A DNA stretch of 64,000 nt from the NCBI GenBank assembly GCA_902540805.1, contig CACBON010000002.1, forward strand, positions 27,322 through 91,321, read 5' to 3'. Both the position numbers and the translations under genes were made by a program. A model generated the notes under the pieces. The model was not told the origin of the DNA. It did no database searches and worked only from the letters and a program-made list of their open reading frames with translations. This DNA comes from an uncultured Alphaproteobacteria bacterium (GTDB taxonomy: Bacteria; Pseudomonadota; Alphaproteobacteria; Methylaequorales; Methylaequoraceae). Below, piece by piece: positions 4,145 through 39,303 of this stretch. The stretch's first letter is position 1. Each line of letters opens with the position of its first letter.

Positions 4145-4432
4145 TTATTTTTTAGGACACGTTATTTCTTTTTGGCATGTATTCCCTGGAGAACCGAGGT
4201 ATATCTCTTTATCTTTTGCTCCTCTTTTCTGAGATTGATAGGTGCAAACAACGTCACCTGGAACTTTTCTTTCACTAATAAGCCTACATTTTGGTTGAAT
4301 AACAATTCTCTTTCTTCTGTCAAATGTTCCCTCTTCAGGAGCATAGGTCCTGCCCTTTGTTTTTGGTAAAGAGTCGACCATAAAGGGAATTATAAAGCAA
4401 AATAATACAAAAAGACTAAGAATTTTCCTCAT
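4145..4432 (-). CDS. small secreted cysteine-rich protein (start trimmed to ATG at 4432)
   Basis: The track ORF 4145..4525 overlaps the upstream gene. The internal ATG gives an N-terminal signal peptide (MRKILSLFVLFCFIIPF) and a mature part of about 75 aa with 4 Cys. Confidence 0.35.
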   Translation of the reverse strand: MRKILSLFVLFCFIIPFMVDSLPKTKGRTYAPEEGTFDRRKRIVIQPKCRLISERKVPGDVVCTYQSQKRGAKDKEIYLGSPGNTCQKEITCPKK

Positions 4433-4664
4433 CAGGCTTTTCCTTGTTCTGAATATTTGTTTTTGTGGATGTTTCTTCTTCAGATCCAGGCATATAAGCA
4501 GATCCTTGAATTGACTTTGCAACAAATTTGTTCATTAAAGGATCTGATTTCTTTACATAATCCTCGAGCTCTTCTTGCAAAATTTTTTCTGCCTCTTCCT
4601 TACTTTTAGCTTCAATTTCAGCTAGCCCATCAACAATCCAGTGAACTTTATAAATCATCTTCAT
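4416..4664 (-). CDS. hypothetical acidic 82-aa protein
   Basis: ORF in an operon-like array with flanking same-strand genes. I recognise no motif. Confidence 0.3.
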   Translation of the reverse strand: MKMIYKVHWIVDGLAEIEAKSKEEAEKILQEELEDYVKKSDPLMNKFVAKSIQGSAYMPGSEEETSTKTNIQNKEKPDEENS

Positions 4665-5304
4665 CCTTGTTAGAATTAAAATATTTATTTTTTGTTAGGA
4701 TTTCATTGGCTTGAACCTGGATTTCAGTTATTTTTTCCTTTTCAATTAACTCTCCAACTCTATCCCTAATTTTCATAGCTTTATATATTCCTGAACTTAC
4801 AGATACAGAATACCATAAATATGATTTTTCAAAATCAATTTCTGGAGAAATTTTTTCATACCAATAACCCAATTGAAAGGCTGATATTGGATTGTTATCG
4901 TTAACATACCCATTTTCAAGAATTTTAGGGATAGTTTTGGAAATTTTTAAAAATTCATCTTCTTCAATTTTTTCTTCAATTGATTTTATTTTATTTAAAC
5001 ATTTTTTATTTCCGTTTAGTGAACAAAGCCAAGTATACTTAAGTGACTTGCTAAAGTTTTGGGTAGTTCCGATACCCTCAAAATACATATTTGATAAATT
5101 AAAAATTGCATCTTTATTTCCTTTTTCGGAAAGATTAAAAAAAACAATAAAAGATTTTTTAAACTCTCCATTTTCATAAAAATTCACCCCACTTTTGTAG
5201 TATTCCACATCATTCAAATATTTATTTTCAGGTGTTATTGTGTCTGCGAAAGACAATTCTTTAACGAGAAAAAAGTTTAAAAGAATTAAAAGAAATTGTT
5301 TCAC
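4648..5304 (-). CDS. Sel1/TPR-like repeat protein with signal peptide
   Basis: Sel1-like repeats (AIFNLSNMYFEGIGTTQNFSKSLKYTW; AFQLGYWYEKISPEIDFEKSYLWY). N-terminal signal peptide. GTG start overlaps the stop of the upstream ORF (GGTGA). Confidence 0.5.
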   Translation of the reverse strand: MKQFLLILLNFFLVKELSFADTITPENKYLNDVEYYKSGVNFYENGEFKKSFIVFFNLSEKGNKDAIFNLSNMYFEGIGTTQNFSKSLKYTWLCSLNGNKKCLNKIKSIEEKIEEDEFLKISKTIPKILENGYVNDNNPISAFQLGYWYEKISPEIDFEKSYLWYSVSVSSGIYKAMKIRDRVGELIEKEKITEIQVQANEILTKNKYFNSNKDEDDL

Positions 5305-5684
5305 CTTCCCGCCATCATTATTAACTGTAAATATAAAACTCTTAATCTAAACTTGGAATTTGGTCTTTGTTCATAAACAACAATTCTTGGTCTATCAGAA
5401 TTAGGTTTTTGAAATTCTATTGACATATCTTCTGGAAGAAATACACCATTAAATTCCAAAGTTTTTTGAGGATCTTGTTCAAACTCTTCTTTAAATTTAG
5501 AATCAATCCAAATCCTTGCCAGAACCCTTCCAAGTATATCTGGAAGAAACTTTCTTACCTCTGATCTATTTTTGAAATGATGAAGTTTATTAGTTATGTC
5601 AAGTGTTTTCGTTTTGTCTTGATTAACAGTTATAACTTCGTTTTGTTTAGTTTTGACTGGTAAATTTTGTTGTTTTTTTTTCAT
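5301..5684 (-). CDS. NHLP / nitrile-hydratase-alpha N-terminal-like domain protein
   Basis: ARIWIDSKFKEEFEQDPQKTLEFNGVFLPEDMSIEF...RIVVYEQRP parallels the conserved AKAWxDPxFKxxLLxDPxxALxExGxxxPEGxxxxVVENTP block of NHase alpha and NHLP leaders. It ends ...MMAGR with no core peptide. Confidence 0.45.
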   Translation of the reverse strand: MKKKQQNLPVKTKQNEVITVNQDKTKTLDITNKLHHFKNRSEVRKFLPDILGRVLARIWIDSKFKEEFEQDPQKTLEFNGVFLPEDMSIEFQKPNSDRPRIVVYEQRPNSKFRLRVLYLQLIMMAGR

Positions 5685-7123: not shown

Positions 7124-7139
7124 TGCAATAATTTTGCCA
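7124..7139 (-). promoter_or_regulatory. sigma-54 (-24/-12) promoter candidate for the bactofilin operon
   Basis: Minus strand reads TGGCAA-AATTA-TTGCA. The -12 C is 12 nt upstream of ATG 7112, which implies a leaderless transcript. Confidence 0.55.
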
Positions 7140-9204: not shown

Positions 9205-9220
9205 TGGCACTTAAATTGCT
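9205..9220 (+). promoter_or_regulatory. sigma-54 promoter (consensus-perfect) for the SLT-domain gene
   Basis: TGGCAC-TTAAA-TTGCT. The -12 C is 12-13 nt before ATG 9232, which implies a leaderless transcript. Confidence 0.6.
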
Positions 9221-10148: not shown

Positions 10149-11609
10149 CTACATATTCATACTTTGAATTTTCATAATTTTTCTTCTAACTGAGGAGGCT
10201 GGTATATTGAGTAACTCCCTGTATTTTGCTACTGTTCTTCTAGCTAAATCAATTCCTTCATCTTGGAGTTTTTCTACTAACATTTCGTCACTCAATGGAC
10301 TGTGTACTGGTTCACTACTAATTAATTTTTTTAGAGATTCTCTTACTGATTCTGCTGAATGAGTTTCACCTTTCTTAGTACTACTTATAGAGGCACTAAA
10401 AAATAGTTTCATTTCAAAAACACCTCTTGGTGTTAGCATCAATTTATCTGATGTAACTCTACTGACTGTGCTTTCATGCATATTTATTTTTTTTGCTACA
10501 TCCTTAAGAACCATTGGTTTAAGATACTTTTTTCCCTTTTCAAAAAATTCCTTTTGTTGGTTAACAATTTCTGAGCTTATTTTCAGTGTTGTTACATTTC
10601 TTTGTTGAATTGCTTTGAGTAACCATCTTGCAGAATTTAAAGATTCATTAATAAACTTTTTATCTGATTCTCCACACTGAAGTCTCTCTATTTCTTTCAC
10701 GTAATCTTCGTTAATATTAATTTTTGGAAGTGTGCTATGATTTAATTCCACAGCCCAGTCAGAATTATTTTTTGTTACAATTACATCTGGATGAAAAATA
10801 TTGTCATTATCTATAGAATACTTACTCCCAGGTTTTGGGTTTAGAGCTCTTATAAGCCTTATTTCTTCTTTCAGTTTTTCCTCTGTTAATCCTGTAAGTT
10901 TTTGGAGACCTTTAATATTTCCACTTCCAAGTAGTTCAATATTATCAATAAGAATCTCTTTTTTTGAATCACAGTTGTTTTCGTTTATAAGTTGAATTTT
11001 TAGGCACTCTTTCAAATTTCTAGCAAATACACCATTAGGCTCAAAAGATTGCATTCTTTCTAGAACTTTTTCAATTTTATTTAATTTAAATCCACTAAAC
11101 TCTTCGATAGTTTCCAATTTTTCTGTAATCCAACCATTTTCATCAATGTAATCAATTAATATTTTTGCAATATTCTTATCTTCATCATCCTCAAATTCAA
11201 GATCTGCTTGATTATTCAAAATGGATTTTAAAGAAACTTTGTTGCTAAGTGTTTGTTCAATTACACTTCCAACGTCAACACTTTCCGTTGATGAATGCCT
11301 ACTGTTAAATTCAAAAGTCGCATCGCAATCCCACCTATTTTCAAAATCATTATTATGGGGTTCATCTGCAATAGATTCGCCATTTTTGAAAGATTCGTCT
11401 AATTCATCAGTTTTTTCTATGTCTTGATTTTCTTTATTATCTAGTTCTTCGCTCTCATTTTCCAAAAATGGATTCTCTTCCATCTCTTTATTCACTAAAT
11501 TTGTTAATTCTAAATTATTTAGCTGAAGCAATTTAATTGCTTGTTGTAACTGAGGAGTCATAACTAAAGATTGACTCTGTTTTAATTTAAGATTCTGTGA
11601 AATTTGCAT
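10149..11609 (-). CDS. rpoN: RNA polymerase sigma-54 factor
   Basis: Region I is Q/L-rich (MTPQLQQAIKLLQLNNLEL). C-terminal RpoN box ARRTVAKYRE. Confidence 0.85.
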   Translation of the reverse strand: MQISQNLKLKQSQSLVMTPQLQQAIKLLQLNNLELTNLVNKEMEENPFLENESEELDNKENQDIEKTDELDESFKNGESIADEPHNNDFENRWDCDATFEFNSRHSSTESVDVGSVIEQTLSNKVSLKSILNNQADLEFEDDEDKNIAKILIDYIDENGWITEKLETIEEFSGFKLNKIEKVLERMQSFEPNGVFARNLKECLKIQLINENNCDSKKEILIDNIELLGSGNIKGLQKLTGLTEEKLKEEIRLIRALNPKPGSKYSIDNDNIFHPDVIVTKNNSDWAVELNHSTLPKININEDYVKEIERLQCGESDKKFINESLNSARWLLKAIQQRNVTTLKISSEIVNQQKEFFEKGKKYLKPMVLKDVAKKINMHESTVSRVTSDKLMLTPRGVFEMKLFFSASISSTKKGETHSAESVRESLKKLISSEPVHSPLSDEMLVEKLQDEGIDLARRTVAKYRELLNIPASSVRRKIMKIQSMNM

Positions 11610-13096: not shown

Positions 13097-13112
13097 TGGT
13101 ATTAAAGTTGCA
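13097..13112 (+). promoter_or_regulatory. sigma-54 promoter candidate for motAB, inside a 28-bp palindrome
   Basis: TGGTAT-TAAAG-TTGCA. It sits in the inverted repeat tggtat...atacca (13097-13124), 51 nt upstream of ATG 13163. Confidence 0.45.
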
Positions 13113-13162: not shown

Positions 13163-13936
13163 ATGGATTTAGCTACAATAATTGGTTTTCTTGGTACAAT
13201 TGGCATGATTGCTGGCGCAATGATTTCAGCTGGAGGCTTGGGGTCATACATTGATGTCCCTTCAATTTTAATAGTTTTTGGTGGTTCTTTTTTTGCTGTA
13301 ATGTATACGGCACCCTTACCAGTTTATCTTGGTTCTTTCGGAGCTTTTGGTAAAGCTTTTAAACCACCTGTAAAAAAAATGGACGAACTTATTGAAAGAA
13401 TAGTAGAGCTAGCAGGTATTGCAAGAAAAGATGGAATGATGGCATTAGAAGGGCAAGAAACCCCAGATCCATTTTTTGACAACGGTCTTCAAATGCTAGT
13501 AGACGGAGCAGATGAATCAAAACTTACCGTACAATTAAAAAAAGAACTAAAGGCAATGCAAGGTCGACATGAAAAAAATATTGGGTGTGCCCAATCTTGG
13601 GTAGATATAGCACCTGCAATGGGAATGATTGGAACTTTGGTTGGATTGGTTGCGATGCTTGGTAATATGGCAGATCCTAAAGCAATAGGTCCTGCAATGG
13701 CCGTTGCTCTTTTGACTACACTTTACGGGGCTATGATAGCAAATACTATTTTTATGCCGATAGTAATAAAATTAAAAGGCTACTCAGCCTACGAAACAAC
13801 CTACAGAGAAATGATCATTACAGGTTTACAATTTATTTCCAGAGGAGAGAGTCCAAGAAATATTCAGGATCAACTTGTTGCGAATCTTCCACCTAAAGAA
13901 AAGCAAAAACTCCTGGAAGCTGCAGCTGGAGGTTAA
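13163..13936 (+). CDS. motA: flagellar stator protein MotA/PomA
   Basis: MotA/TolQ/ExbB family with 4 TM helices (GTLVGLVAMLGNMADPKAIGPAMAVALLTTLYG). Immediately upstream of motB. Confidence 0.75.
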   Translation: MDLATIIGFLGTIGMIAGAMISAGGLGSYIDVPSILIVFGGSFFAVMYTAPLPVYLGSFGAFGKAFKPPVKKMDELIERIVELAGIARKDGMMALEGQETPDPFFDNGLQMLVDGADESKLTVQLKKELKAMQGRHEKNIGCAQSWVDIAPAMGMIGTLVGLVAMLGNMADPKAIGPAMAVALLTTLYGAMIANTIFMPIVIKLKGYSAYETTYREMIITGLQFISRGESPRNIQDQLVANLPPKEKQKLLEAAAGG

Positions 13937-13946
13937 TGTTTGAATC

Positions 13947-15131
13947 ATGGCTGAGGAAAAAACCGAAAATCAACAGACATCTAATGAAGAAGAGGAGCAT
14001 GAATGTCCTGAATGCCCTCCAAAAGGAGCACCTGCTTGGATGGCAACTTTTGCCGACATGGCAACACTGTTGATGGCTTTTTTTGTTTTAATCCTATCTT
14101 TCGCAGAATTTAACGTCCCAAAATTTAAACAAATAAGTGGAAGTATGAAGAATGCTTTTGGAATACAAAGAGTTATTCCAGTTGTTGAACCACCTAAAGG
14201 AACAACAATATTATCTTTAAACTTCAGTCCGAACCCGACTCCAGCAGTTCAAGAAAATTTAAAACAACAAACAACAGAGACTGATCAACCTAAAGTAGAA
14301 CTTCAAACTAAGAACGAAGATAATACTAAGGATGATGGTGAAACTGAGGACGCGAAAGAACTTGCCAAAAATATTCAGGAAGCTATTGCAAGAGGTGATA
14401 TAACCGTCGAAGCATTAGGGAGTAAAGTTGTTGTTAACTTTACACCAACAGAAGCTGACGAGAAAGAACTACCGCAACTACTTCAAGAGACTTTAAATGC
14501 TGTGGAATCTGTAAAGGCTGCATCAGGAAAATCAGATTCTGAAATTTTAATTGGTGGCTTAGAAAAACAACTCGCTGATCTTGCAACAGCATCTTCTCAA
14601 AAAGGTAAAAATGAGGCTGAAGGAGAAGATGGAGAAAGTGTAGGTCAATCTGAACAAAGCCAATCAGCTAAAGAGGAGGCTAAAAAAGCAGAGTTGGCTG
14701 AGGACAAATTAAAAATTGCACTTAAACAAGAAATTGGGGAAGGTCTTGTAAATGTTGATAGAGAGGACGACAAAGTGATAATAACTGTTGGGTCTGCTGG
14801 TGCGTTCAAGTCAGGATCTGCTGAACTTACCAACAAGGCAAGACAGATAATGTCTAAAATAGCAGAACAAAATAAAAAAGGTAGAAGTGAGATATTAGTT
14901 ATGGGTCATACGGACAATGTGCCACTTACATTTGGGTCAAATTATAGAGACAATTGGGATCTCGCAGCAGCAAGATCTGCCTCAGTGGTACAACAATTAT
15001 CAAGAAATGATACTCTCGACCCAAAAAGAATGAAGGCGATTAGTTACGGAGAGACAAGACCAGTAGAGTCAAATGATACCTCTCAGGGAAGAGCCAAAAA
15101 TAGAAGAATCGAAATTGAGATAAATTATTAA
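13947..15131 (+). CDS. motB: flagellar stator protein MotB with long acidic linker
   Basis: N-terminal TM helix with the conserved Asp region (ATFADMATLLMAFFVLIL). C-terminal OmpA-like peptidoglycan-binding domain (MGHTDNVPL...NRRIEIEI). Confidence 0.75.
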   Translation: MAEEKTENQQTSNEEEEHECPECPPKGAPAWMATFADMATLLMAFFVLILSFAEFNVPKFKQISGSMKNAFGIQRVIPVVEPPKGTTILSLNFSPNPTPAVQENLKQQTTETDQPKVELQTKNEDNTKDDGETEDAKELAKNIQEAIARGDITVEALGSKVVVNFTPTEADEKELPQLLQETLNAVESVKAASGKSDSEILIGGLEKQLADLATASSQKGKNEAEGEDGESVGQSEQSQSAKEEAKKAELAEDKLKIALKQEIGEGLVNVDREDDKVIITVGSAGAFKSGSAELTNKARQIMSKIAEQNKKGRSEILVMGHTDNVPLTFGSNYRDNWDLAAARSASVVQQLSRNDTLDPKRMKAISYGETRPVESNDTSQGRAKNRRIEIEINY

Positions 15132-15132
15132 G

Positions 15133-16056
15133 ATGAAAATAGAAAATAGTCCATTTCATATTTCTAAAAATAAGGTTTCCCCTGTAAAAGAAAATAAAGG
15201 GCCTAAAAATCAACAACTATTCAATGATAAGAAGGTTAATAAACCCGAAAAAGACGATTTTTCTTTTTGGGATTGGTTTAGAGGGTTGGTCAACCCTTTC
15301 CAAAATCTTCCAATTATAAGTGGAATTTATTCAAGCATTAATTCTGATGATAGTAAATCCGATAGAGACTTAATTCAAAATAGTCTTGGTGGTTTTATGT
15401 ACGGTGGTCCTATTGGCGCGATTGCAGGTTTTGGGAATTGGGTTTTTAATAAAATATTTGACAAAACGCCGTCAGAACTAGCGCTTGATGTTTCAGGAAT
15501 AAGCAATCTTTGGAAAGACAATAAGAACAAAGAGAGTCAGATTGCAGAAAATAATAAAATAGATGATGACAAAAATTCTTCTGTGGTTTTTTCTAATAAA
15601 AATACTTACGGAGAATGGTGGAAAGGCAACCAAAAATCTAGTACTAAAAATTATGTAGCATCTGGCAAAAATAATTTTGAAAAAACTAACCTCCCCAACT
15701 TCAAAAATGTAGGTATCGAAAATAAAAATAATGCTATCGAAAGAAATATTAATAAATATTCGACCAAACCAGTTGTTTTGGAAAATAAACAAAATATTAC
15801 TTTGGCTTTTGATGGAAAGTCTGAGTTAGTAAAAATAAATAATCAAATCTCTGGGTCGATAGATAACAAAAATGAAAATAAAAAGTCCAAAAAAGAAAAA
15901 TTTGGAGAAATCAATTTTAACTATCCGAATTGGAGTCCCAGATCTTTTGAAGTTGACAAAAATAAAAATGAATTGAAAAGCAAAGACTTAATTAATAAGA
16001 AATATATGGATCTTAAAAATGGAAATATTGGAGCAAACTTAAATTTGAAACTTTAA
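15133..16056 (+). CDS. N/K-rich low-complexity protein of unknown function
   Basis: The ORF starts 2 nt after the motB stop. Confidence 0.3.
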   Translation: MKIENSPFHISKNKVSPVKENKGPKNQQLFNDKKVNKPEKDDFSFWDWFRGLVNPFQNLPIISGIYSSINSDDSKSDRDLIQNSLGGFMYGGPIGAIAGFGNWVFNKIFDKTPSELALDVSGISNLWKDNKNKESQIAENNKIDDDKNSSVVFSNKNTYGEWWKGNQKSSTKNYVASGKNNFEKTNLPNFKNVGIENKNNAIERNINKYSTKPVVLENKQNITLAFDGKSELVKINNQISGSIDNKNENKKSKKEKFGEINFNYPNWSPRSFEVDKNKNELKSKDLINKKYMDLKNGNIGANLNLKL

Positions 16057-16656
16057 TCACTCGTATTCAAGTTCTTCGTTTTTATATTTTTCAAAATATT
16101 CGTTACCAAGAATTTCTTTTATCTTCTCAATTGTAAGATCGTTAACTTTAGACGAGTATAACTCGTGCATTTCAGAACATTTTCTAGAAACTGCGTTTGC
16201 AACCCCTTGAGATATAAAATCATTTTCAAGTGCTGTTCTTGCTCTTGTGGTTGCCTCTGATTTAGCCTTTGTAAGCCTAGCTAAACCTGAATTTTTTTTT
16301 CTATTTAAATCGTCGACAACTTCCATCAGTTGTTTATAGCCTGGTTCTGGTAGGTCAATGTTAATGAATTGCCCATCAACTTCGTAATTAAACTCTACTT
16401 CGTCAATTTTTTCAGTTAAAAGGGGAATATGATCTGTATTAAATACTAAGATTTGCACTACATTTTCATTTTCTGTTTTTTTTATATCTCCTACATCAAC
16501 TAATCTTCTTGGCTTACCCTGAATGTTGATCCGGATACCTTTTAGTGTACTTAAGTTTGCATCTGCTGATTTTATTTCTTGAATTACTTCTGTATAATCT
16601 TCAATTGCTGCTTTCATTAAAGTTTCTGCTTGTATTGTATATTTATCTGCAACCAT
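16057..16656 (-). CDS. ribosome-recycling-factor-like protein (divergent paralog)
   Basis: By eye the hydrophobic/charge pattern tracks RRF: LKGIRINIQGKPRRLVDV vs LDGIVVEYYGTPTPLRQLA; ILVFNTDHIPLLTEKI vs INVFDRSMSPAVEKAI; INIDLPEP vs IRVPLPPLTEE. Roughly 20% identity at most. Confidence 0.35.
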   Translation of the reverse strand: MVADKYTIQAETLMKAAIEDYTEVIQEIKSADANLSTLKGIRINIQGKPRRLVDVGDIKKTENENVVQILVFNTDHIPLLTEKIDEVEFNYEVDGQFINIDLPEPGYKQLMEVVDDLNRKKNSGLARLTKAKSEATTRARTALENDFISQGVANAVSRKCSEMHELYSSKVNDLTIEKIKEILGNEYFEKYKNEELEYE

Positions 16657-16665
16657 AAGATGATT

Positions 16666-17466
16666 TTATACTATTACGGTTTGATTTTCATCAACAATGT
16701 TTTGTTTATTACTGTTATTTTTATTAACATTGTCTTCTTTTTTATCTTTTTCAACCTCTTCAACAAGTGGTTTTGGTAGTTTTGAAAACTTAAATTTTGA
16801 CTTTGGGTCTAACTTTCTAATGGTTTTTTGAGCCTCATCAATTGATTTAGACAAAATTTTTATACAAAAGACTTTTCCTTCCAGCATTGAAAAACTGTAA
16901 AGAAGATTTAATTGGGCTTTGTAACAGTAAATTGAAGTAAGTAACCATCCAAGAAAAAAAATATAAATATTGACTGATATTGATATTGCCATAATTGCTG
17001 TAAACAGAAGTAAAACCCACCATTTTTGCGAATAAGCTAACCAGAATGGAGGGAAAATACCTGCTGAAAGTGAGTTTGCATTTTCGATCACCTCATAGTT
17101 TCTGTAAACGTCTCTCATCCCAATAAATTCCTTTAGTTCATCAAGATCATTTATTTTATGCGTTAAGTAATCAGATTTTATTTTACTGGTTTCCTCAGCT
17201 GTAGTCGTAATAAATTTGCAACCTAAACTATTTTCTACTAATAAATTAAAAAATGTATCGTCTCTCAGAACTGTGAGCATAGATTTTTGACTATTTTTTT
17301 TTAACTCCTTTAAATCAGCGGTAAACTGTTTTTCACCAAAAGTATAGATTTGGTTATCTAGTGCAACGATTATATCATCAGGCTTCAAAAAGTTGTTTGC
17401 AGCGTGACTTCCACTATTTATTTTATTAATTTTTAAGAGAAAGTTTCCTTCTTGCTTTTCAGACAT
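16666..17466 (-). CDS. membrane protein with PDZ-like N-terminus
   Basis: GSHAANNFLKPDDIIVALDNQ resembles the PDZ ligand-binding loop. Two central TM helices. K/N-rich tail. Confidence 0.3.
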   Translation of the reverse strand: MSEKQEGNFLLKINKINSGSHAANNFLKPDDIIVALDNQIYTFGEKQFTADLKELKKNSQKSMLTVLRDDTFFNLLVENSLGCKFITTTAEETSKIKSDYLTHKINDLDELKEFIGMRDVYRNYEVIENANSLSAGIFPPFWLAYSQKWWVLLLFTAIMAISISVNIYIFFLGWLLTSIYCYKAQLNLLYSFSMLEGKVFCIKILSKSIDEAQKTIRKLDPKSKFKFSKLPKPLVEEVEKDKKEDNVNKNNSNKQNIVDENQTVIV

Positions 17467-17473
17467 TGTTTTG

Positions 17474-18199
17474 TTACGGGAAAGTTATACTTTCTTTTTG
17501 ATCAGTTATTTCTTTAACTAATTGCTTGTTTTGGCTGGAAATCGCTTCAAGTGCCGCATTCAATGATGATGTGCTATTAGAAAGTTCTTTAAGAAGTTTT
17601 ACGTTCTGGTTCTTTTTATTATCTTTCAATAGTTTTCCAATCTCTTTGTTAACACTTGCAGATGTAACAACTCCTGACTCTTGAATTGACTTATTCAGCT
17701 TATCAGCTTCATTTTTAATTGATTTAGAAAGCCCTGATGATAAATTTGTAATTTCTTTTGATAAATTAACCATTAGTTTTTTATCATTCGAATTAATTGC
17801 ACTTGAAAGCTCTTCAATTTTAACTTTCATCTCTTCACTGGCATTTAATAAATCAGTATGTCTAGCTAAACTTTGATTCATGTTATCTACTGCTTTATTA
17901 ACATTTTCGACATTTTCAGCAAAAACAACCAAAGCTTCTCTACTAGTGCTTGTCATGTCTTCTAGTTCAGAAAGTGACTTAAAATATAGAAGTCCAGTTA
18001 AAAGAATTGCTACAATAGCAGTGGCAATTGAACTTGAAAAAATGATTGTTGTATATTTGTGAATTTCTTTCATTTTTTGCTCCGTCTTTAAGTATTCGTT
18101 TTTAATTCTTTTGTATTCTGAAGTCACATCGGTGGCTGCGTCAGCAGCATCCAAAGCTATTTTAATGCTTTCCTGCATTGCATTAAGTTGTTGAGTCAT
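17474..18199 (-). CDS. single-pass membrane coiled-coil protein
   Basis: One TM helix (residues about 50-72) followed by about 170 aa of S/N/K/L heptad-like sequence. No MCP signalling core. Confidence 0.3.
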   Translation of the reverse strand: MTQQLNAMQESIKIALDAADAATDVTSEYKRIKNEYLKTEQKMKEIHKYTTIIFSSSIATAIVAILLTGLLYFKSLSELEDMTSTSREALVVFAENVENVNKAVDNMNQSLARHTDLLNASEEMKVKIEELSSAINSNDKKLMVNLSKEITNLSSGLSKSIKNEADKLNKSIQESGVVTSASVNKEIGKLLKDNKKNQNVKLLKELSNSTSSLNAALEAISSQNKQLVKEITDQKESITFP

Positions 18200-18396
18200 G
18201 CAATTCTTCCTTTATTTAGTATTTTAACACTTTTTTGTTTTTTTTGAAATAGTGCACAATCTGTGCCAGAAACTTTCTTTATTTCTAAATATGGGTTATT
18301 TTTTGAAATTATACCAAATGCTTTACAACCATATGGAAAGTTTTTCTTATAGGTCACATAAAAATGCGAGCAGTTATTACAGTTATTTTGATTCAT
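18196..18396 (-). CDS. small Cys4 (putative zinc-ribbon) protein
   Basis: CNNC ... C(24) ... C(47) spacing. Overlaps its neighbours by 4 nt on each side. Confidence 0.3.
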   Translation of the reverse strand: MNQNNCNNCSHFYVTYKKNFPYGCKAFGIISKNNPYLEIKKVSGTDCALFQKKQKSVKILNKGRIA

Positions 18397-18625
18397 TTTT
18401 CATTAGATCTCTTATTTTATAATATAGTTTTGCAATTTGGAATCTCAACGCACCACAAAAAGAAGTTAAAGCACAAAACCAAAGAAATAAAGCAAGAAGA
18501 AAATTTTTCTCTTCGAATACTTCAATGGCTTTGAAGTGACATATTAATGAGCTATAAAAAAAAGCAAGAGTAACAATTAGTTGTGAAATGTTTCTATTGA
18601 TCATTTTTTCTTCCGAACTCGTCAA
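18383..18625 (-). CDS. small two-TM protein
   Basis: ORF overlapping the flhB 3' end by 32 nt. Two hydrophobic helices. Confidence 0.2.
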   Translation of the reverse strand: MTSSEEKMINRNISQLIVTLAFFYSSLICHFKAIEVFEEKNFLLALFLWFCALTSFCGALRFQIAKLYYKIRDLMKNESK

Positions 18626-19745
18626 AAATCATATCTTCAGGTATCTCTATCTCTGGTTTCTCAATTTCTTCTCCATTATCTATTTTATAAATATATGCTA
18701 AGGCAATAGCAACAGCATTATAGAGTTTACTCATGATTTCATCACCAATTTCGGATGTATAGTATATTGCTCTTGCCAGTTTAGGACTTTGCATGGTACC
18801 AATTTTAAGTTCTTTTCCTTTCTTAATTATGGATTCAGCAATTTTACCCCTTCCTTTGGATATAATTATAGGAGCTTTTGCGTCCCCAACTTCATATTTA
18901 AGAGCTACAGCAAAGTGTGTTGGGTTTGTAATTATTGCAGTAGCTTCTTCAAGGTTATCAACAGACGACGCTTCTTTTCTACTTTTTGTTGCAGCTTCGG
19001 CTTGAAGTTTTCTTATTTTTTGTTTGACTTCAGGTTGTCCGTCAGTCTCTTTGTATTCGTCTTTGAGGTCTTGATGAGACATTCTAAGTTGCTTAATATA
19101 ATCATACTTTTGGTAAACTACATCTATAAAAGCTATAAATGCGAGAACGACAAGGAGATAAGCAATTATTTCTGGAAAAAAAGAAAAAAGTCTATTTACT
19201 GCGGAAAAAATATTAGCGGTTGTTAAATTGACTAAATCAGATAAATTATTTTCAATCAAAAAGAAAGCTACTAGACCAAGAAGACTGACTTTTAATATAG
19301 CCTTTACTAATTCTACTAATCCCTTAAGTGAAAATATTCTTTTTAATCCTTTAATTGGATTCATTTTCTCAAACTTCCAGTAAATTGATTTTATGGAGAA
19401 GTTTATTCCACCAATTAAAAACTGCGTTAGTACACTTACTACCAATAGTGGTATTGAAAAAATTAAAAATACTTGAATGAAAAATTTTACAACTACAGCA
19501 ACAGATTCAAGTGGAGACTTTCCAGAGGCTAATTCTGGACCAAAGGAAAATAGAGATTTACAAATTTTTAAAAAATCGTCTAAAAGCATTGGTGCAAGAT
19601 AAAATAGTAATACTCCCATGAACATTGAACTGAAAACAAAAGCTTCTTTGGAAGACAGAACTTTCCCATCCTCTTTTGCTTTTTCAAGCCTTCGGGCTGT
19701 AGGTTCCTGGGTTTTTTCTTGACTTTCGTCTTTATCTTCCGCCAT
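18594..19745 (-). CDS. flhB: flagellar export apparatus protein FlhB
   Basis: Four TM helices. NPTH autocleavage motif (AIITNPTHFAVALKY). Confidence 0.85.
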   Translation of the reverse strand: MAEDKDESQEKTQEPTARRLEKAKEDGKVLSSKEAFVFSSMFMGVLLFYLAPMLLDDFLKICKSLFSFGPELASGKSPLESVAVVVKFFIQVFLIFSIPLLVVSVLTQFLIGGINFSIKSIYWKFEKMNPIKGLKRIFSLKGLVELVKAILKVSLLGLVAFFLIENNLSDLVNLTTANIFSAVNRLFSFFPEIIAYLLVVLAFIAFIDVVYQKYDYIKQLRMSHQDLKDEYKETDGQPEVKQKIRKLQAEAATKSRKEASSVDNLEEATAIITNPTHFAVALKYEVGDAKAPIIISKGRGKIAESIIKKGKELKIGTMQSPKLARAIYYTSEIGDEIMSKLYNAVAIALAYIYKIDNGEEIEKPEIEIPEDMIFDEFGRKNDQ

Positions 19746-19760
19746 TAAATTATATCCTTT

Positions 19761-20576
19761 TTAATTAATGAGTATATTTTCTATCGATTCTAAAGAACTT
19801 TTCGTAAGCTCTGCAAATGCATTTCCCATAGATTGAGAAGCTAAATACATTATGAAGAAAGCTAGGATCATAGTTACAGGGAATGCAAACGAAAACATAT
19901 TTAATTGAGGAGCTGCTCTTGTTATAATTCCTATTGCAATGTTTGTTAGTAAAAGTGCTCCAACAACTGGAAGCATTATTAATCCTCCTGTATAAAACAT
20001 AGCACCAGCAGCTTCTATGCCCAAACCGACAAGACCAAATGGTGGTATTCCATCATTAATATTAAAAATTTCAAAGCTTTTAAATAAAAATTCAATTGCG
20101 ATTAAATGTCCATTTAACGATAAAAAAATAGTAATTAAGAATAAGTCTAATATTAGACTAATTACTGGTGTTTGTCCGCCTGTATCTGGATCAACCATTT
20201 GGGAAAAACCTAACCCAGTAGTAGCTGCTATTTTCTCTCCAGCCAAACTTGCTGCTGCAAACCATATTGTTAGTGTTAAACCCAGTGATAATCCAATCAA
20301 AGCTTCTACTATTACAACAATAACAAGGTTATCAAGAATTTGTTCTGACACTTGAATATCAGAGAGATACCCATAATAAAAAAATGAAATCACTAGAGAA
20401 AAAATTATTTTTACATTCAAAGGAATAACTCTTGAACCAAAAAAAGGGCTTGATATGAAAAATGCTGATAATCTTATCGAACATAAAAAGAATTTAAATA
20501 AGTACTCAATAAGAGAGTTTAATTCGAGTCCTGGTAAGGCATCCATAGGACTGTAAAAAGGTAATGGAATAAACAT
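19761..20576 (-). CDS. fliR: flagellar export apparatus protein FliR
   Basis: Polytopic membrane protein in the fliPQR position. Its stop abuts the flhB gene. Confidence 0.8.
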   Translation of the reverse strand: MFIPLPFYSPMDALPGLELNSLIEYLFKFFLCSIRLSAFFISSPFFGSRVIPLNVKIIFSLVISFFYYGYLSDIQVSEQILDNLVIVVIVEALIGLSLGLTLTIWFAAASLAGEKIAATTGLGFSQMVDPDTGGQTPVISLILDLFLITIFLSLNGHLIAIEFLFKSFEIFNINDGIPPFGLVGLGIEAAGAMFYTGGLIMLPVVGALLLTNIAIGIITRAAPQLNMFSFAFPVTMILAFFIMYLASQSMGNAFAELTKSSLESIENILIN

Positions 20577-20842
20577 TAATTTATTCCTGAAATTGTATCA
20601 AAAATAAATTGAAAATAATCAGTTAAACTCACTAAAAGAAAATTAGCTAAAAAGCCTATTGCAAAGATAACTATGACAATTTTTGGAACAAAACTAAGTG
20701 TCATTTCCTGGATTGATGTGGCTGCTTGTATAATTCCAATAATCAAGCCAATAGCAAGAGCTGCACCTAGAAATGGGCCACTAGAAATCAAAACTTGGTA
20801 AAAAGCTAATCTTATCATTTCAACATTTTGATCAAATCCCAT
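20576..20842 (-). CDS. fliQ: flagellar export apparatus protein FliQ
   Basis: 88-aa two-TM protein between fliP and fliR. Confidence 0.8.
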   Translation of the reverse strand: MGFDQNVEMIRLAFYQVLISSGPFLGAALAIGLIIGIIQAATSIQEMTLSFVPKIVIVIFAIGFLANFLLVSLTDYFQFIFDTISGIN

Positions 20843-20868
20843 TATCTATTACTCCTATAACACTAAAT

Positions 20869-21615
20869 TCACGAGAACGTTCCAACAAGAGATCCCACAG
20901 TCATTGACCAACCATCAACCAAAACAAAAAGGAGTAGTTTAAAGGGTAGGGCAATTAACATTGGAGATAACATCATCATACCAAGTGACATCAAAACAGA
21001 AGCTACGACCATATCAATTACCAAAAAAGGTAAAAAAAGTAAAAAACCAATCTGAAATGCAGTTTTTAATTCACTCGTAATATATGCTGGCAAAACAATG
21101 TAAAAAGGGATTTGAGAACTATTTTCAAACTTTCCCTCATTTGCCATTTCTGCAAACATCAATAAATCATTCTTTCGTGTATTTTTAACCATGAATTTTT
21201 TTAACTCACCGCCGCCACTTTCAACTGCCTCAGATAAATTCATTTCTCCATTATTATAGGGTTCGGAGACATCAGAGTAAATTTTATTAAATGTAGGAGC
21301 CATTACAAAAAAAGTAAGGAATAGGGAGATAGCGACTAAAATTTGGTTGGGCGGTGTTTGCTGTGTCCCAAGAGCTTGTCTTAAAATTGACATAACAATA
21401 ATAATTCTTGTAAAAGCAGTCATTCCTAAAACGAGTGAAGGCAGAATTGTTAAAGCTGTCATCAACGCTAAAATTTTTAGAGAAACAGAATATGTTTTTG
21501 TGCCATTTTCTGACTCAGTAATAGTTAATGCTTCTAATCCTTCGGGAGCCATTTGAGAAAACCCAAAAAATGGAAAAAGAATAATAATTAAAAACAAAAA
21601 ATTAATTTTTTTCAT
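20869..21615 (-). CDS. fliP: flagellar export apparatus protein FliP
   Basis: Signal peptide plus a conserved FliP core (TAFTRIIIVMSILRQALG...). Confidence 0.85.
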   Translation of the reverse strand: MKKINFLFLIIILFPFFGFSQMAPEGLEALTITESENGTKTYSVSLKILALMTALTILPSLVLGMTAFTRIIIVMSILRQALGTQQTPPNQILVAISLFLTFFVMAPTFNKIYSDVSEPYNNGEMNLSEAVESGGGELKKFMVKNTRKNDLLMFAEMANEGKFENSSQIPFYIVLPAYITSELKTAFQIGFLLFLPFLVIDMVVASVLMSLGMMMLSPMLIALPFKLLLFVLVDGWSMTVGSLVGTFS

Positions 21616-25452: not shown

Positions 25453-25468
25453 CTGCAATTATAATGCC
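25453..25468 (-). promoter_or_regulatory. sigma-54 promoter (consensus-like) for fliK-L-M-N
   Basis: Minus strand reads TGGCAT-TATAA-TTGCA in the 43-nt fliJ-fliK gap. The RBS AAGGGG and ATG 25429 follow. Confidence 0.6.
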
Positions 25469-25472
25469 ACTA

Positions 25473-31268: not shown

Positions 31269-32426
31269 TTAAGCTTGCATCAATTTTTTTTCTGACAAAT
31301 TTTCTTGAATGTTATTATAAAAATTACTTTCTTTCGAAACATCTATCATTATGTCTTTATCTTCAATTATATTTCTTTCAGAGAGAACTATAGCTCTTTG
31401 CAGAACATTTTCCAACTCTCTAACATTTCCGGGCCAACTATACTCTCTTAATATTTTTTGAGCATCTTTGTTGATGTAAGGTAGGGCGCTTTTTTCTGTG
31501 TGTCTATTCAATAAAGCTATACTAATTGGCAAAATATCATCAGGTCTTTCAGATAAATTATGTGTTTCTATTGGGAACACATTAAGTCTGTAATATAAAT
31601 CCTCTCTGAATTTTTTATCTTTTACTTCGTTTAACATATCTCTATTAGTTGTTGCAATTACTCGAACATTAACATCAATATCTCGTTGTCCGCCAATCGG
31701 TGTAACTTTTTTTTCTTGGAGAACTCTAAGAAGCTTAGCTTGAAGGGACAAAGGCATTTCAGATACTTCATCAAGAAGTAATGTTCCATTATCAGCAGCT
31801 CGAAAAATTCCTTTATTCGCAGAGGAAGCTCCTGTAAAAGCTCCTTTTTCATGTCCAAATAACATTGCTTCAAGCATATTTTCTGGTATCGCAGCACAAT
31901 TTATTGCAATAAAAGGTTTTTCATGTCTATCCGACTTTTTATGAATAAGATTGGAAATAACTTCTTTTCCAGTTCCAGTCGGTCCATGAATAAACACTGT
32001 AACATCTGTTTTTGAAACCTTTTCAACCATATTAATTAAAGAAAGTGTTTTCTTATCTGAGAAACTATACTTTTCCTTAGATATAATCTGAAAAATAATT
32101 TCTTTTATAACCTCATCCATAATCTGGAAAGAAATTTGAATATAAGCTCCGCCCATTTCTTTTTTTAAGTCATAACTACTATCATTTTCTGAATCCAAAA
32201 CTATTAATTTTGTAGAACCTATATTTCTAGCAATTTTAAGAATGTTTGATTGACCACCTTGTTGGTTTTCGAATTTTTTATCGATAATCAATGTGGATTG
32301 AGAACTTTTAATTTCACTGATCTCATCAGAATCAATTAATTTGATTTCCTTTCCTTTTTTACTAAAAAAATCATTTATATCATTGTGTACTTCAAAACAA
32401 TCTTTAATAATAAATATTTCCTTCAT
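31269..32426 (-). CDS. sigma-54-dependent activator lacking a DNA-binding domain (FlgR/FleT-like); start set to ATG 32426
   Basis: Degenerate receiver-like N-terminus. AAA+ core with GPTGTGKE and GAFTGA. About 40 aa follow GNVREL and contain no Fis-type HTH. The track ORF starts at TTG 32453. Confidence 0.8.
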   Translation of the reverse strand: MKEIFIIKDCFEVHNDINDFFSKKGKEIKLIDSDEISEIKSSQSTLIIDKKFENQQGGQSNILKIARNIGSTKLIVLDSENDSSYDLKKEMGGAYIQISFQIMDEVIKEIIFQIISKEKYSFSDKKTLSLINMVEKVSKTDVTVFIHGPTGTGKEVISNLIHKKSDRHEKPFIAINCAAIPENMLEAMLFGHEKGAFTGASSANKGIFRAADNGTLLLDEVSEMPLSLQAKLLRVLQEKKVTPIGGQRDIDVNVRVIATTNRDMLNEVKDKKFREDLYYRLNVFPIETHNLSERPDDILPISIALLNRHTEKSALPYINKDAQKILREYSWPGNVRELENVLQRAIVLSERNIIEDKDIMIDVSKESNFYNNIQENLSEKKLMQA

Positions 32427-32459
32427 ACTTAAATCCTTTATTTTCGTTTTCAATCTAAA

Positions 32460-32475
32460 AGCAAAAATATTGCCA
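32460..32475 (-). promoter_or_regulatory. sigma-54 promoter candidate driving the EBP-fliE-F-G-H-I-J operon
   Basis: Minus strand reads TGGCAA-TATTT-TTGCT. The -12 C is about 12 nt upstream of 32449. RBS AAAGGA precedes ATG 32426. Confidence 0.55.
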
Positions 32476-32617
32476 AATAAGAAAACGAATTTTTACAAAA
32501 TTAATTTTAAATAGTAATATCAACTACTTAGAAATTTTTTTTTTTTTTAATTTTTTTTAAAATTTGCTTATTGTCAGTTTTCTGACATTATTTTATTTAT
32601 AAATAAGTTAATTTATT

Positions 32618-33682
32618 ATGTCTGAGATCATCAAAGGAAAATGTGAGGCAACTTTACAATTAAAAAAACTTGTAGAGATGGTTGCAAAATCAAATTCAAC
32701 AGTTTTACTTAGAGGTGAGACTGGGTGTGGTAAAGATGTGGTTGCCAGAGCTATTCATGAATCATCAAAAAGAAACGGTGAATTAATTAATGTTAATTGT
32801 GCAGCAATACCGTCTGAGCTTTTAGAATCTGAATTATTTGGTCACGAAAAAGGAGCATTTACTGGTGCAGATTCAAAAAGAGAAGGAAGATTCGAGGCTT
32901 CCAATAATGGCACCTTGTTTCTAGATGAAATAGGTGACATGCCTATGGCACTTCAGGCTAAATTACTCAGAGCGATTGAAACTAGAAAAATTCAACGAGT
33001 TGGAGGAAGAAAAGAGATTGATCTTAATTTAAGGCTTATTTGTGCTACTCACCAAGACATTGAAAAAAAAATTGATGAGGGTAATTTTAGGGCTGATCTA
33101 TTTTTTCGGATCAACGTATTTCCAATTGAAATTCCATCACTCGCAGAGAGAAAGGAGGATATTCCAATTCTTGTTAATCATATCTTAGAGGATTTAAAAT
33201 ACAGTGGATCTATTATTCCTCAAATTGATAATTCGGGAATAAAAGCGCTTCAAGAATATTTATGGCCAGGTAATGTAAGAGAATTAAAAAATGTTATTGA
33301 GAGGGCAGCAATAATCTTCCCAGAAAAAAGTATTAATGGCAAAAACATTAAAGAAAATTTGTTAAAAGTTAATTTACCTGACAACTCTCAAGAAAAAGAG
33401 GAGTTATGGGAAATGACTTCTGATCTTTCTCCAATAAAAATCGAAACGAGTTCTGATTCTCATTCAATGCCACACCCAAATCATTATAAAAAATGGTTTG
33501 ATTTCTTAGACAAGATAGATCTTCGTAGACATTTAAGTGATGTTGAATTTAACTTAATAGAAGGAGCACTAAAGAAAAGTAACGGATCTGTGACCGAGGC
33601 TTCGAAATGTTTAAAAATAAACAGAACGACTTTAATTGAAAAAATGAAAAAATACTCTATTCCTAAGCTCGGAAATGACTAA
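32618..33682 (+). CDS. sigma-54-dependent activator with C-terminal Fis-type HTH and no regulatory N-domain
   Basis: Starts directly with the AAA+ domain ([20 protein letters not shown]). C-terminal HTH ([29 protein letters not shown]). Confidence 0.8.
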
Positions 33683-37986: not shown

Positions 37987-39303
37987 ATGCCAGTTAAAAT
38001 AATTATACTAGGTAAGCCAAATGTGGGAAAATCATCATTATTTAATATGATTTTAAAAAAAAATATTGCAATTGTTGATAACCTTCCTGGTTTGACTGTA
38101 GACTTAAGAAAAAAAATAATAAGCTTATGGGATCTTAAATGTGAATTTGTTGATTCACCTGGTCTTGTAAATCCATCTAACGAAATTGAAGAAAAAATAA
38201 AGAAGAACACAATTGAATATTCAAAATTATCTGATTTGATAGTAATTGTATTTGATGGTAAATCAGATTTATCATATGAAGATTTAGAAATAATAGTTTT
38301 GGCAAGAAAATTTAATAAACCTATTTTATTGGTAGTAAATAAAACTGAGGGAAATTACTCTCAAAACGTTTTAAATGAATTAAATAAATCTGGTTTAGGT
38401 AAACCAATACTTGTATCTGCAGCTCATAATCAGTCAATTGATCAATTGAAATGGCAAATATATGAATCTTTAAAGAACTTGAAAATAATGGAAGAAAATG
38501 AGGAGCAATTTAATGACTTTTCAATTGCAATTATTGGCAAGACTAATACGGGTAAATCAACAATGTTTAATTTGATAAAAAAAAAAAAGATTGCAATAAC
38601 TGGCTCTCAACCAAATCTAACAAGAGATTCGGTTGAAACTAATGTAAGTTTAAAGAATTCTAATTTTAAGATGTTTGATACTGCCGGTTTCTCGAAAAGT
38701 AATAAAGAACATGTTCATGAATTAGCAATTAATCAAACTCTAAAAAAAATAAGACTATGTAATGTTTTATTAATAGTTTTGGATATTAATAATTATTATG
38801 AAAAAATAAACTCTAAAATTTTAAGTTTGGTCAATTCTGAGAATAGATGTCATGTATTATTGATGAATAAAATAGATAGCGTGAATGATTTTCAACAACA
38901 AAAAATTAAAAAACATCTTCAAGATTTAAATCCACAAATAAGAGAAACACCTGTATTATTTGTTTCAGCAAAAGAAAATATTGGTTTTGAGAAATTGCAT
39001 TCAATAATCGAGAAACAATTAAAATCATGGAAAAGAAGAATTACAACAAGTGATTTAAACGAATGGTTGGGTAAAGTAATGATTGAAAACCCTCCCCCCT
39101 TAAAAAATGGAAGAGTTGTAAAACTGAAATTCGCTTCACAGGTGAGTATTTCTCCTCCCAAATTTAATATTTTTTCAAATCACCCTGGTGCAATTAATAA
39201 CCAATATAAAAAGTATTTATCCAACAAGCTCAAAAAAAGATTCCAATTAGAAGCTGTGCCAATAAAGGTTAGATTTAAAAAAACTAATAACCCTTATGAG
39301 TAA
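37987..39303 (+). CDS. der: ribosome-associated GTPase Der/EngA
   Basis: Two GTPase domains (GKPNVGKSS and GKTNTGKST) plus a C-terminal KH-like domain. Confidence 0.85.
   Translation: MPVKIIILGKPNVGKSSLFNMILKKNIAIVDNLPGLTVDLRKKIISLWDLKCEFVDSPGLVNPSNEIEEKIKKNTIEYSKLSDLIVIVFDGKSDLSYEDLEIIVLARKFNKPILLVVNKTEGNYSQNVLNELNKSGLGKPILVSAAHNQSIDQLKWQIYESLKNLKIMEENEEQFNDFSIAIIGKTNTGKSTMFNLIKKKKIAITGSQPNLTRDSVETNVSLKNSNFKMFDTAGFSKSNKEHVHELAINQTLKKIRLCNVLLIVLDINNYYEKINSKILSLVNSENRCHVLLMNKIDSVNDFQQQKIKKHLQDLNPQIRETPVLFVSAKENIGFEKLHSIIEKQLKSWKRRITTSDLNEWLGKVMIENPPPLKNGRVVKLKFASQVSISPPKFNIFSNHPGAINNQYKKYLSNKLKKRFQLEAVPIKVRFKKTNNPYE

Follow-up and report, generated by a model that had tools for sequence, protein, structure and literature searches.

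The ribosome recycling factor (RRF) is seen as a translation factor that has one purpose and is conserved universally. Its gene, frr, is essential and near-universal in bacteria, usually lies in a tsf-pyrH-frr-uppS-cdsA context, and encodes a product that can be recognized across phyla. Here we describe an RRF-like gene (RRFL) at the end of a flagellar operon in 64,000 nucleotides of DNA from an uncultured alphaproteobacterium (contig CACBON010000002.1, positions 27,322 to 91,321). This whole stretch is referred to as the window, and coordinates are numbered from its first nucleotide unless another locus is named. RRFL occupies positions 16057-16656 of the minus strand, begins with ATG, and encodes a protein of 199 amino acids with a two-domain RRF fold; the same gene call is also present in public assemblies. 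Literature searches returned no published bacterial RRF paralog with another role and no RRF-like flagellar protein. The fold and superfamily are known, and the conserved and functionally suggestive context is new.

The closest described relatives are the canonical RRFs, with which RRFL shares the two-domain fold, the order of structural elements, the core length, and the hinge proline P103. It differs from them in its low identity (about 18%), in a score more than 115 bits under the cut-off of the frr equivalog model, and in the loss of key residues and of the RTGRA motif. Unlike canonical RRFs, it has motifs of its own (N-terminal Y-S, RRLxD, ENEFI, and K...LG) and a C-terminal extension, and it is encoded in flagellar operons. 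The organellar RRFs (human mtRRF and chloroplast RRF), which are among the structural matches to RRFL, similarly have a core that tolerates added segments, and they retain the conserved arginines and still recycle ribosomes (PMC6486771). RRFL, in contrast, is without most of those residues, and its extensions are C-terminal.

Three other groups of proteins offer functional rather than structural comparisons. Cytoplasmic motor effectors that bind FliG or MotA include the YcgR/MotI PilZ proteins, the EpsE clutch, H-NS, and fumarate reductase. The mode of action proposed below for RRFL would resemble theirs, in which a soluble protein, in many cases a housekeeping fold put to new use, docks at the rotor-stator interface, and the co-transcription of RRFL with motAB or fliG would fit this analogy. 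However, these effectors have no sequence or fold relation to RRFL, and no site for cyclic di-GMP or another ligand is evident in it. FlbT and FlaF of Alphaproteobacteria and the CsrA/FliW pair target flagellin mRNA, and their genes lie close to those for flagellin. A role like theirs would suit post-transcriptional control tied to flagellar assembly, but Pfam and NCBIfam scans of RRFL return RRF only, with no homology to these proteins, and RRFL is encoded with stator, rotor, and export-gate genes. Finally, short BLUF photoreceptors signal through a partner or a fused output domain. One RRFL relative carries a BLUF domain, and its RRFL module would be the output or interaction part of a light switch, whereas the RRFL of the window has no sensor domain.

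Homology and predicted fold

RRFL is a genuine RRF homolog, and the resemblance is far beyond chance. A first-pass annotation, made from the letters of the window, had read this gene as a divergent RRF-fold protein, and all of the RRF motif blocks that it listed are present in the translation (LKGIRINIQGKPRRL, VQILVFN, INIDLPEP, and RLTKAKSEATTRAR). The RRF family profile PF01765 matches RRFL with 47 bits, above its gathering cut-off of 29.7 bits, and positions 5-164 of the 164 in the profile are covered. More distant family members give only weak matches to this profile, or none were recorded. The best sequence match in the PDB is the Aquifex RRF (E = 6.7e-6). When a profile of the RRFL family is aligned to a canonical RRF profile with hhalign, the match extends over 174 columns (probability 98.5%, E = 3.7e-15) with 18% identity. 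Structural alignments give identities to canonical RRFs of about 13-23%, and BLAST finds 26% over 96 residues to E. coli RRF, so the earlier estimate of at most about 20% was about right.

Structure prediction agrees with the profile match. The AlphaFold2 model of RRFL has a mean predicted local distance difference test score (pLDDT) of 91.4 and a predicted template modeling score (pTM) of 0.77, and it reproduces the RRF element order of a helix, a short helix, four strands, a helix, two strands, and two long helices. A first model built from 16 close sequences was poor in domain II (pLDDT about 50), which was fixed by adding distant family members. The modeled protein keeps the three-helix bundle, the inserted beta/alpha/beta domain, and two hinge prolines (P103/P105). 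In a Foldseek comparison with the PDB, the 26 best matches are all RRFs, with full-length alignments, E values down to 1e-12, and template modeling (TM) scores of 0.5-0.65. Separate domains also find their counterparts: domain II matches an isolated RRF domain II (1wih, TMt 0.68, root-mean-square deviation 2.2 Å) and domain I matches an isolated RRF domain I on the 50S subunit (1y69, TMt 0.86). The modest full-length TM scores and high deviations probably reflect the inter-domain hinge angle.

Departure from canonical RRFs

Judged by the NCBIfam equivalog model for frr (TIGR00496, trusted cut-off 149.1 bits), RRFL is not a canonical frr product, which is in line with the first-pass reading of it as distinct from the housekeeping gene. 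RRFL of the window scores 32.3 bits, and representatives of six other lineages of the family score 0-30 bits. As controls, E. coli RRF scores 271 bits and the canonical RRFs nearest the family profile score 177-206 bits; no scores fall between the two groups.

For a residue-level comparison the hhalign alignment was put on E. coli numbering, and a position is called invariant when it is so within the canonical set compiled here. Three arginines are replaced in RRFL: R110 by a leucine that is itself invariant in the window's clade, R129 by threonine, and R132 by lysine. Lysine stands in for E108, aspartate for K115, asparagine for E122, glycine for D151, and glutamine for Y45. Most residues invariant in the canonical set are thereby replaced, among them R110, R129, E108, K115, E122, and D151. 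The RTGRA hinge motif aligns to KSADA, with P103 retained. In E. coli, mutation of Arg132 drastically lowers the affinity for the 70S ribosome, and the conserved tip of RRF domain I contacts the P-loop (PMC6486771). RRFL of the window is also acidic, with an isoelectric point (pI) of 4.9 and a net charge of about -10. The pI ranges from 4.9 to 9.1 across clades, so there is no consistent RNA-binding charge.

The genomic setting is likewise not that of frr. Genes of the tsf-pyrH-frr type flank RRFL neither in the window nor in the other loci examined. A tblastn search with E. coli RRF finds no canonical frr in the 64-kb window or within 10 kb of RRFL in the loci checked (about 1.6 Mb of flanking DNA, which represents small parts of the genomes), and there is none in the 10 kb beyond the window end. 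Open reading frames at 55-62 kb were considered as a possible lpxD-bamA-rseP-dxr series leading to cdsA-uppS-frr, but this was rejected, since Pfam identifies them as ksgA-pdxA-surA-lptD-lptG-lptF-pepA.

Family extent and signature motifs

A word-indexed search collects 536 close clusters from marine metagenomes, single-cell amplified genomes (SAGs), and metagenome-assembled genomes (MAGs), while an exhaustive profile search of 1.84 billion representative proteins gives only 108 matches. The latter include full-length relatives of 192-233 amino acids that are 15-37% identical to the window protein. Canonical RRFs (about 185 amino acids) appear in this search only at E values of 1e-7 to 1e-3. 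One match, P0122 (2529 amino acids with 23 "stretches"), proved to be a false positive, a surface protein of repetitive sequence, and was rejected as a family member.

A set of signature motifs is common to lineages whose identity is only 15-35%. The motifs are (D/E)-x-Y-S-x-x-A at the N-terminus, G-x-x-R-R-L-x-D in domain II, P-x-P-T-x-x-Q-L at the hinge, K-x-K-x5-R-x7-E-(F/Y)-I at the end of helix 3 and the tip, and K-x4-L-G plus an extension at the C-terminus. In RRFL of the window the corresponding residues are Y6-S7, R50-R51-x-x-D54, P103/P105, L110, R119, K130/K132, R138, E146/I148, K178, and L183-G184. The median pairwise ratio of nonsynonymous to synonymous substitution rates is 0.038 (31 pairs in the window's clade), which indicates a functional protein-coding gene under strong purifying selection. 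From these sequence comparisons, RRFL appears to be an old, separate branch of the RRF fold family in marine Alphaproteobacteria. Some members are in Paracoccaceae MAGs.

Public annotations of the family conflict. Members such as P0019, P0047, P0100, and P0243 on one side and P0102, P0265, and P0342 on the other are named either "ribosome recycling factor" or "hypothetical protein", and the former label is probably a mis-annotation. In one SAG (AG-337-B08; L047 5193-5643), RRFL is apparently split between two frames by a frameshift or pseudogene formation or by a sequencing error. One MAG, CAYYMX01, has two members (L027/L042), one of the window type (69% identity) and one related to P0125 (37%); they are either a second paralog or the result of bin contamination.

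Flagellar operon contexts

In the window, RRFL is the last gene of a tight, co-directional array on the minus strand, which supports its first-pass placement at the end of a flagellar operon. According to Pfam annotation this array comprises a sigma-54-dependent activator, fliE, F, G, H, I, (J), K, L, M, N, (O), P, Q, and R, flhB, and four further genes, orf80, orf66, orf241, and orf266, before RRFL. The assignment of fliJ is probable, as is that of fliO, which has a sub-threshold FliO match. Only 9 nt separate orf266 from RRFL, and the genes back to flhB overlap or nearly abut. The export-gate genes fliR, fliQ, and fliP lie at 19761-21615, and the last recognizable flagellar gene upstream of RRFL is flhB (18594-19745), which encodes the export-gate switch protein (PF01312, 339 bits). 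On the opposite strand, a convergent stator operon of motA, motB (both assigned by Pfam), and orf307 runs from 13163 to 16056, and its stop codon abuts that of RRFL.

The flagellar linkage is stronger than could have been known from the window alone; it is strong, but not universal. A pattern scan of one genome per GTDB species yielded 76 loci, which were scored with the flagellar proteins of the window. Flagellar genes are linked to RRFL in 73 of these, in three arrangements and at 27-98% protein identity. The clade of the window (26 loci, 57-98% identity) comes from SAGs and MAGs of uncultured Alphaproteobacteria, some labeled Rickettsiales; the SAGs include AG-349-G20 (CACAYF01) and GCA_902558875.1. 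All of its loci with enough flanking sequence have the order fliP-Q-R-flhB-orf80-orf66-orf241-orf266-RRFL, convergent with motA-motB-orf307, and further public-assembly loci have this arrangement as well.

In SAR116 (Puniceispirillales), where RRFL is 27-36% identical to the window protein, the gene instead follows the stator genes on their strand, as co-directional motA-motB-RRFL, in 34/34 loci. RRFL thereby fills the slot after motB. At the C-terminus, the SAR116 proteins are extended by a low-complexity tail of 50-70 residues. The cultured Arctic isolate Ca. Levibacter sp. uisw_134_01 (PMC12509534, PMC12421898) has a closed genome (CP159808) in which RRFL begins 33 nt after motB (L049) and is followed by a convergent der gene. 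Another SAR116 locus (L071) has a convergent orf266-orf241-orf66-orf80-flhB series after RRFL, which recreates the motB/orf266 junction of the window with RRFL on the opposite strand. Between the two clades, RRFL has switched strand and operon yet stayed flagellar. Among four family representatives on contigs of 0.8-3.4 kb (P0132, P0157, P0203, and P0125), context comes from P0132 only, a short metagenomic contig of the SAR116 type in which the C-terminus of MotB is encoded upstream of RRFL.

A third clade (32-37% identity; labeled Rhodospirillaceae, TMED62, TMED93, and others) is represented by 13 loci with the order fliG-orf91-RRFL. This compact unit stands apart from the remaining fli genes, and the gene after it, which is convergent, encodes a cyclic nucleotide monophosphate (cNMP)-binding protein. 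At locus L054, for example, the gaps are 20 nt after fliG and 43 nt after orf91.

Between the window clade and SAR116 (L049, L071), flagellar proteins are conserved far better than housekeeping proteins. MotA (motA at 13163-13936), FliP (fliP at 20869-21615), and FliI are 74%, 74%, and 66% identical, respectively, whereas the housekeeping proteins Der (der at 37987-39303) and BamB are only 34% and 24% identical. This comparison suggests that the flagellar cluster has been exchanged horizontally or that evolutionary rates are very unequal.

Candidate sigma-54 promoters

Conserved sigma-54-type motifs accompany the RRFL operons of SAR116 and of the third clade. The SAR116 motif TGGTCT-N5-TTGCA is present about 62 nt upstream of motA in 13/13 aligned loci, and a motif upstream of motA in the window (13097-13112, plus strand) aligns with it. 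In the third clade, TGGCAT-N5-TTGC(T/G) occurs 70-80 nt upstream of fliG in 8/10 loci. For the array of the window that ends in RRFL, the nearest intergenic candidate promoter is a perfect motif, TGGCATTATAATTGCA, upstream of fliK (25454-25469, minus strand). The window contains 13 sigma-54-type sites where 3.0 are expected, and 0/100 shuffled sequences reached 13. The sigma-54 gene itself, rpoN (10149-11609, minus strand), is 4.4 kb from RRFL and belongs to the conserved neighborhood. A sigma-54-dependent activator gene (31269-32453, minus strand) heads the fli array and has a sigma-54-type site at 32460-32475.

A further motif, TGGCACAGATTGTGCA, is located closer to RRFL, inside orf66 (18253-18268, minus strand) and 54-69 nt upstream of orf241. 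It was not counted as promoter evidence, since its GG and GC elements come from conserved Gly and Cys-Ala codons.

The sites of the window include those at 9205-9220 (plus strand) and at 25454-25469, 32460-32475, and 7124-7139 (all minus strand). Sigma-54-type sites also precede genes that do not look flagellar, such as an SLT transglycosylase gene and bactofilin genes. Two sigma-54 activators face each other at 31269-33682.

A BLUF fusion and lineages without flagellar neighbors

One family member, P0188 (L014 936-2165; Logan DRR337518), is a 409-amino acid fusion of RRFL to BLUF, a sensor domain for blue light. No other cluster of this kind is present among the 1.84 billion representative proteins. 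On its 12-kb contig the fusion gene is 3-9 kb from flgF/G, fliA, flhG, a probable flhF, and flhA, and 1.3 kb from an orf90/Sel1-repeat/orf128 gene set that is also found in the window at 4145-5684. The fusion hints that an RRFL module can serve as the output of a sensor.

Other lineages have RRFL in different surroundings. The abundant Paracoccaceae/Rhodobacteraceae type (212 amino acids, on contigs of up to 1.1 Mb) is encoded between cbbR with the RuBisCO operon on one side and a small secreted protein on the other. Genes for an amino-acid ABC transporter precede the P0206 type, metabolic genes surround the L102 type, and the P0213 type has an orf91-like gene before it and a convergent adenylate/guanylate cyclase gene after it. 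The small proteins encoded downstream of RRFL in Paracoccaceae (128 amino acids) and in the P0206 type (153 amino acids) show no homology to each other or to genes of the window.

In low-GC marine Paracoccaceae (L011-L013), a complete cbb operon adjoins RRFL, with genes for the RuBisCO large and small subunits, PRK, FBPase, FBA, CbbX, and CbbR. Genes related to cyclic nucleotides recur beside RRFL. They encode the convergent cNMP-binding protein of the third clade (L054 10636-11067), the convergent adenylate/guanylate cyclase of the P0213 lineage (L101 3477-4781), and a cNMP-binding protein 5 kb away in Paracoccaceae (L011 15991-16395). This recurrence may be due to chance.

Possible functions of RRFL

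The reading that we tentatively favor, and that we hold to be plausible though still short of probable, is that RRFL no longer recycles ribosomes and that it assists or regulates the flagellar motor or basal body from the cytoplasm, through protein contacts. RRFL would be made from flagellar operons, with flhB and four small conserved genes, motA-motB, or fliG as partners. Its conserved surfaces would then bind a motor or export component, such as FliG, the cytoplasmic loop of MotA, or FlhB-associated proteins, and binding would tune motor assembly or output. In one lineage this tuning may be governed by the fused BLUF blue-light sensor. A more specific version, which we consider unlikely as stated, makes RRFL a soluble effector on the FliG-MotA torque interface or the export gate that brakes, clutches, or tunes a sodium- or proton-driven motor, with BLUF control in one lineage. 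An equally novel possibility would be a ribosome-binding factor reserved for the flagellum, which would link local translation with assembly of the motor.

Several points weigh against the motor-accessory reading. The contact of RRFL with FliG, MotA, or FlhB is itself a proposal. RRFL retains the L-shaped, tRNA-like architecture of RRF and its hinge prolines, and basic residues form a stripe along helix 3 (R119, K130, K132, R138), as would be expected if some ribosome binding persisted. In at least four lineages (Paracoccaceae, P0206, L102, and P0213) no classical flagellar gene is present in the available flanks, and the role of RRFL may therefore be more general than a flagellar one. The motif inside orf66, although kept in 21/21 loci of the window clade, is inseparable from the coding constraint on its Gly...Cys-Ala codons. 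In addition, none of the genomes with RRFL yielded a canonical frr, and that the two genes coexist is something that we infer.

The inference that RRFL is a paralog beside a normal frr draws on the clean gap between family scores of 0-32 bits and canonical scores of at least 177 bits on the equivalog model, on derived motifs that are common to different alphaproteobacterial orders and families, including Paracoccaceae, on the existence of fusion and tail variants and of two members in one MAG, and on the essentiality and ready recognition of frr across bacteria. All of these observations tell against the contrary view that RRFL is a fast-evolving housekeeping frr of streamlined AT-rich genomes and their only RRF. 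The same derived motifs in SAR116, Paracoccaceae, and others point to one old family rather than to lineage-specific drift, and the BLUF fusion, the tails of 50-70 residues in SAR116, and the two family members in a single MAG likewise speak against this view. The sole-RRF view can appeal to the public annotations that read "ribosome recycling factor" and to the lack of a canonical frr in the window and in about 1.6 Mb of flanking loci, which is weak support because these regions are small parts of the genomes. We regard it as very improbable. A second view, which the first-pass annotation had put forward by comparison with FlbT and CsrA, is that RRFL is a ribosome-targeting translational regulator under flagellar control. 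While the sigma-54 operons are on, an altered mode of docking in the tRNA cleft of the 50S subunit would allow RRFL to pause or otherwise modulate translation or to link it with flagellar assembly. The whole two-domain architecture with both hinge prolines is compatible with this idea, as are the basic residues that remain in helix 3, including K132 (at the position of E. coli R132) and R138, and an Ile-Ser/Asp pair in the tip loop that aligns with the canonical ISED tip contacting the P-loop (PMC6486771). The non-flagellar contexts of several lineages would also suit a general target such as the ribosome, and the fold has no other known function. However, five of the seven invariant domain-I residues are replaced, R110 (now an invariant Leu) and R129 (now Thr) among them, and the tip has lost D151. 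The protein is acidic in the window and variable in pI between clades, and its partners are stator, rotor, and export-gate genes (motAB, fliG, and flhB) rather than flagellin genes or known translational regulators. Pfam scans of RRFL reveal no homology to FlbT, FlaF, CsrA, or FliW. Regulation of translation finds no direct support and is weakened by the lost residues, the variable pI, and the nature of the operon partners, and we consider it a doubtful though credible reading. The other suggestion of the first-pass annotation, a structurally repurposed fold, fits the evidence better.

It is also conceivable that RRFL serves some general function outside both the ribosome and the flagellum and that its operon position is inherited with the neighborhood. 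The at least four deep lineages that carry RRFL away from recognizable flagellar genes favor this explanation, and the contrast between MotA (74%) and Der (34%) identity would allow the cluster and its passengers to have moved as a block. Passive inheritance is harder to reconcile with three separate operon memberships, after flhB, motB, and fliG, each of which is kept across many species, and with the dedicated, conserved sigma-54 promoters of two of these operons. It also leaves aside that RRFL changed strand and operon between the window clade and SAR116 while remaining flagellar, that the BLUF fusion is beside flagellar genes as well, and that the orf91-type partner recurs beside flagellar accessory genes. 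We judge this general-function explanation unlikely.

Neighboring genes

The four genes between flhB and RRFL, all on the minus strand (16666-18625), have no family assignment in Pfam or NCBIfam scans, and the same is true of orf307 and of orf91 from the third clade. The first, orf80 (18383-18625), overlaps the end of flhB and encodes a small hydrophobic protein that is 73 amino acids long in public assemblies. It is followed by orf66 (18196-18396), which encodes a small, zinc-ribbon-like protein with four cysteines and overlaps orf241 by 4 nt. The conserved product of orf241 (17474-18199), a gene in the same operon as RRFL, has a hydrophobic segment and no significant family match. The product of orf266 (16666-17466) has a weakly PDZ-like N-terminus and a sub-threshold DUF2628 match over a hydrophobic stretch, and its gene stays with the cluster both in the window clade and at SAR116 locus L071. 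The products of orf80, orf66, orf241, and orf266 are 43, 42, 45, and 27% identical, respectively, when the window clade is compared with L071. These four proteins may be unrecognized flagellar components.

On the plus strand, orf307 (15133-16056) encodes an Asn/Lys-rich protein and holds the post-motB slot that RRFL uses in SAR116. It is fast-evolving, with 39-59% identity across the more divergent loci of the window clade and no match in any SAR116 locus.

A small set of proteins without assigned families recurs near flagellar genes. It comprises orf126 (4145-4525, minus strand), which encodes a small, Cys-rich, secreted protein, a Sel1-repeat protein of 218 amino acids, and orf127, and together these genes span 4145-5684 on the minus strand of the window. 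Sets of this type, or homologs of their small proteins, are found at L014 3511-5087, L054 9652-9927, and L101 2323-2655. The homolog of orf126 in the third clade and in the P0213 lineage is orf91, which lies between fliG and RRFL in the former and directly upstream of RRFL in the latter. The orf127 product shares 57% identity with its counterpart in L014 and gives a sub-threshold match resembling an NHLP leader. The remainder of the window, which has a G+C content of 29.6%, is ordinary chromosomal housekeeping DNA.

Implications

RRFL is widespread in some of the most abundant marine heterotrophs, including SAR116, the relatives of the organism from which the window comes, and a marine Paracoccaceae lineage. 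The "ribosome recycling factor" label that some members carry can mislead marker-gene and metabolic-reconstruction pipelines. The question of what RRFL does can be addressed by experiment, since one carrier, Ca. Levibacter sp. uisw_134_01, is in culture and its genome is closed (CP159808; PMC12509534). Its place beside stator and rotor genes, within the sigma-54 flagellar program of three clades, suggests that a translation-factor fold has a second, motility-linked job. If RRFL acts at the ribosome, then it would represent a new class of translation regulator. If it acts at the motor, then it would be a new component of the alphaproteobacterial flagellum and a case in which the fold of a translation factor has been recruited to a molecular machine.

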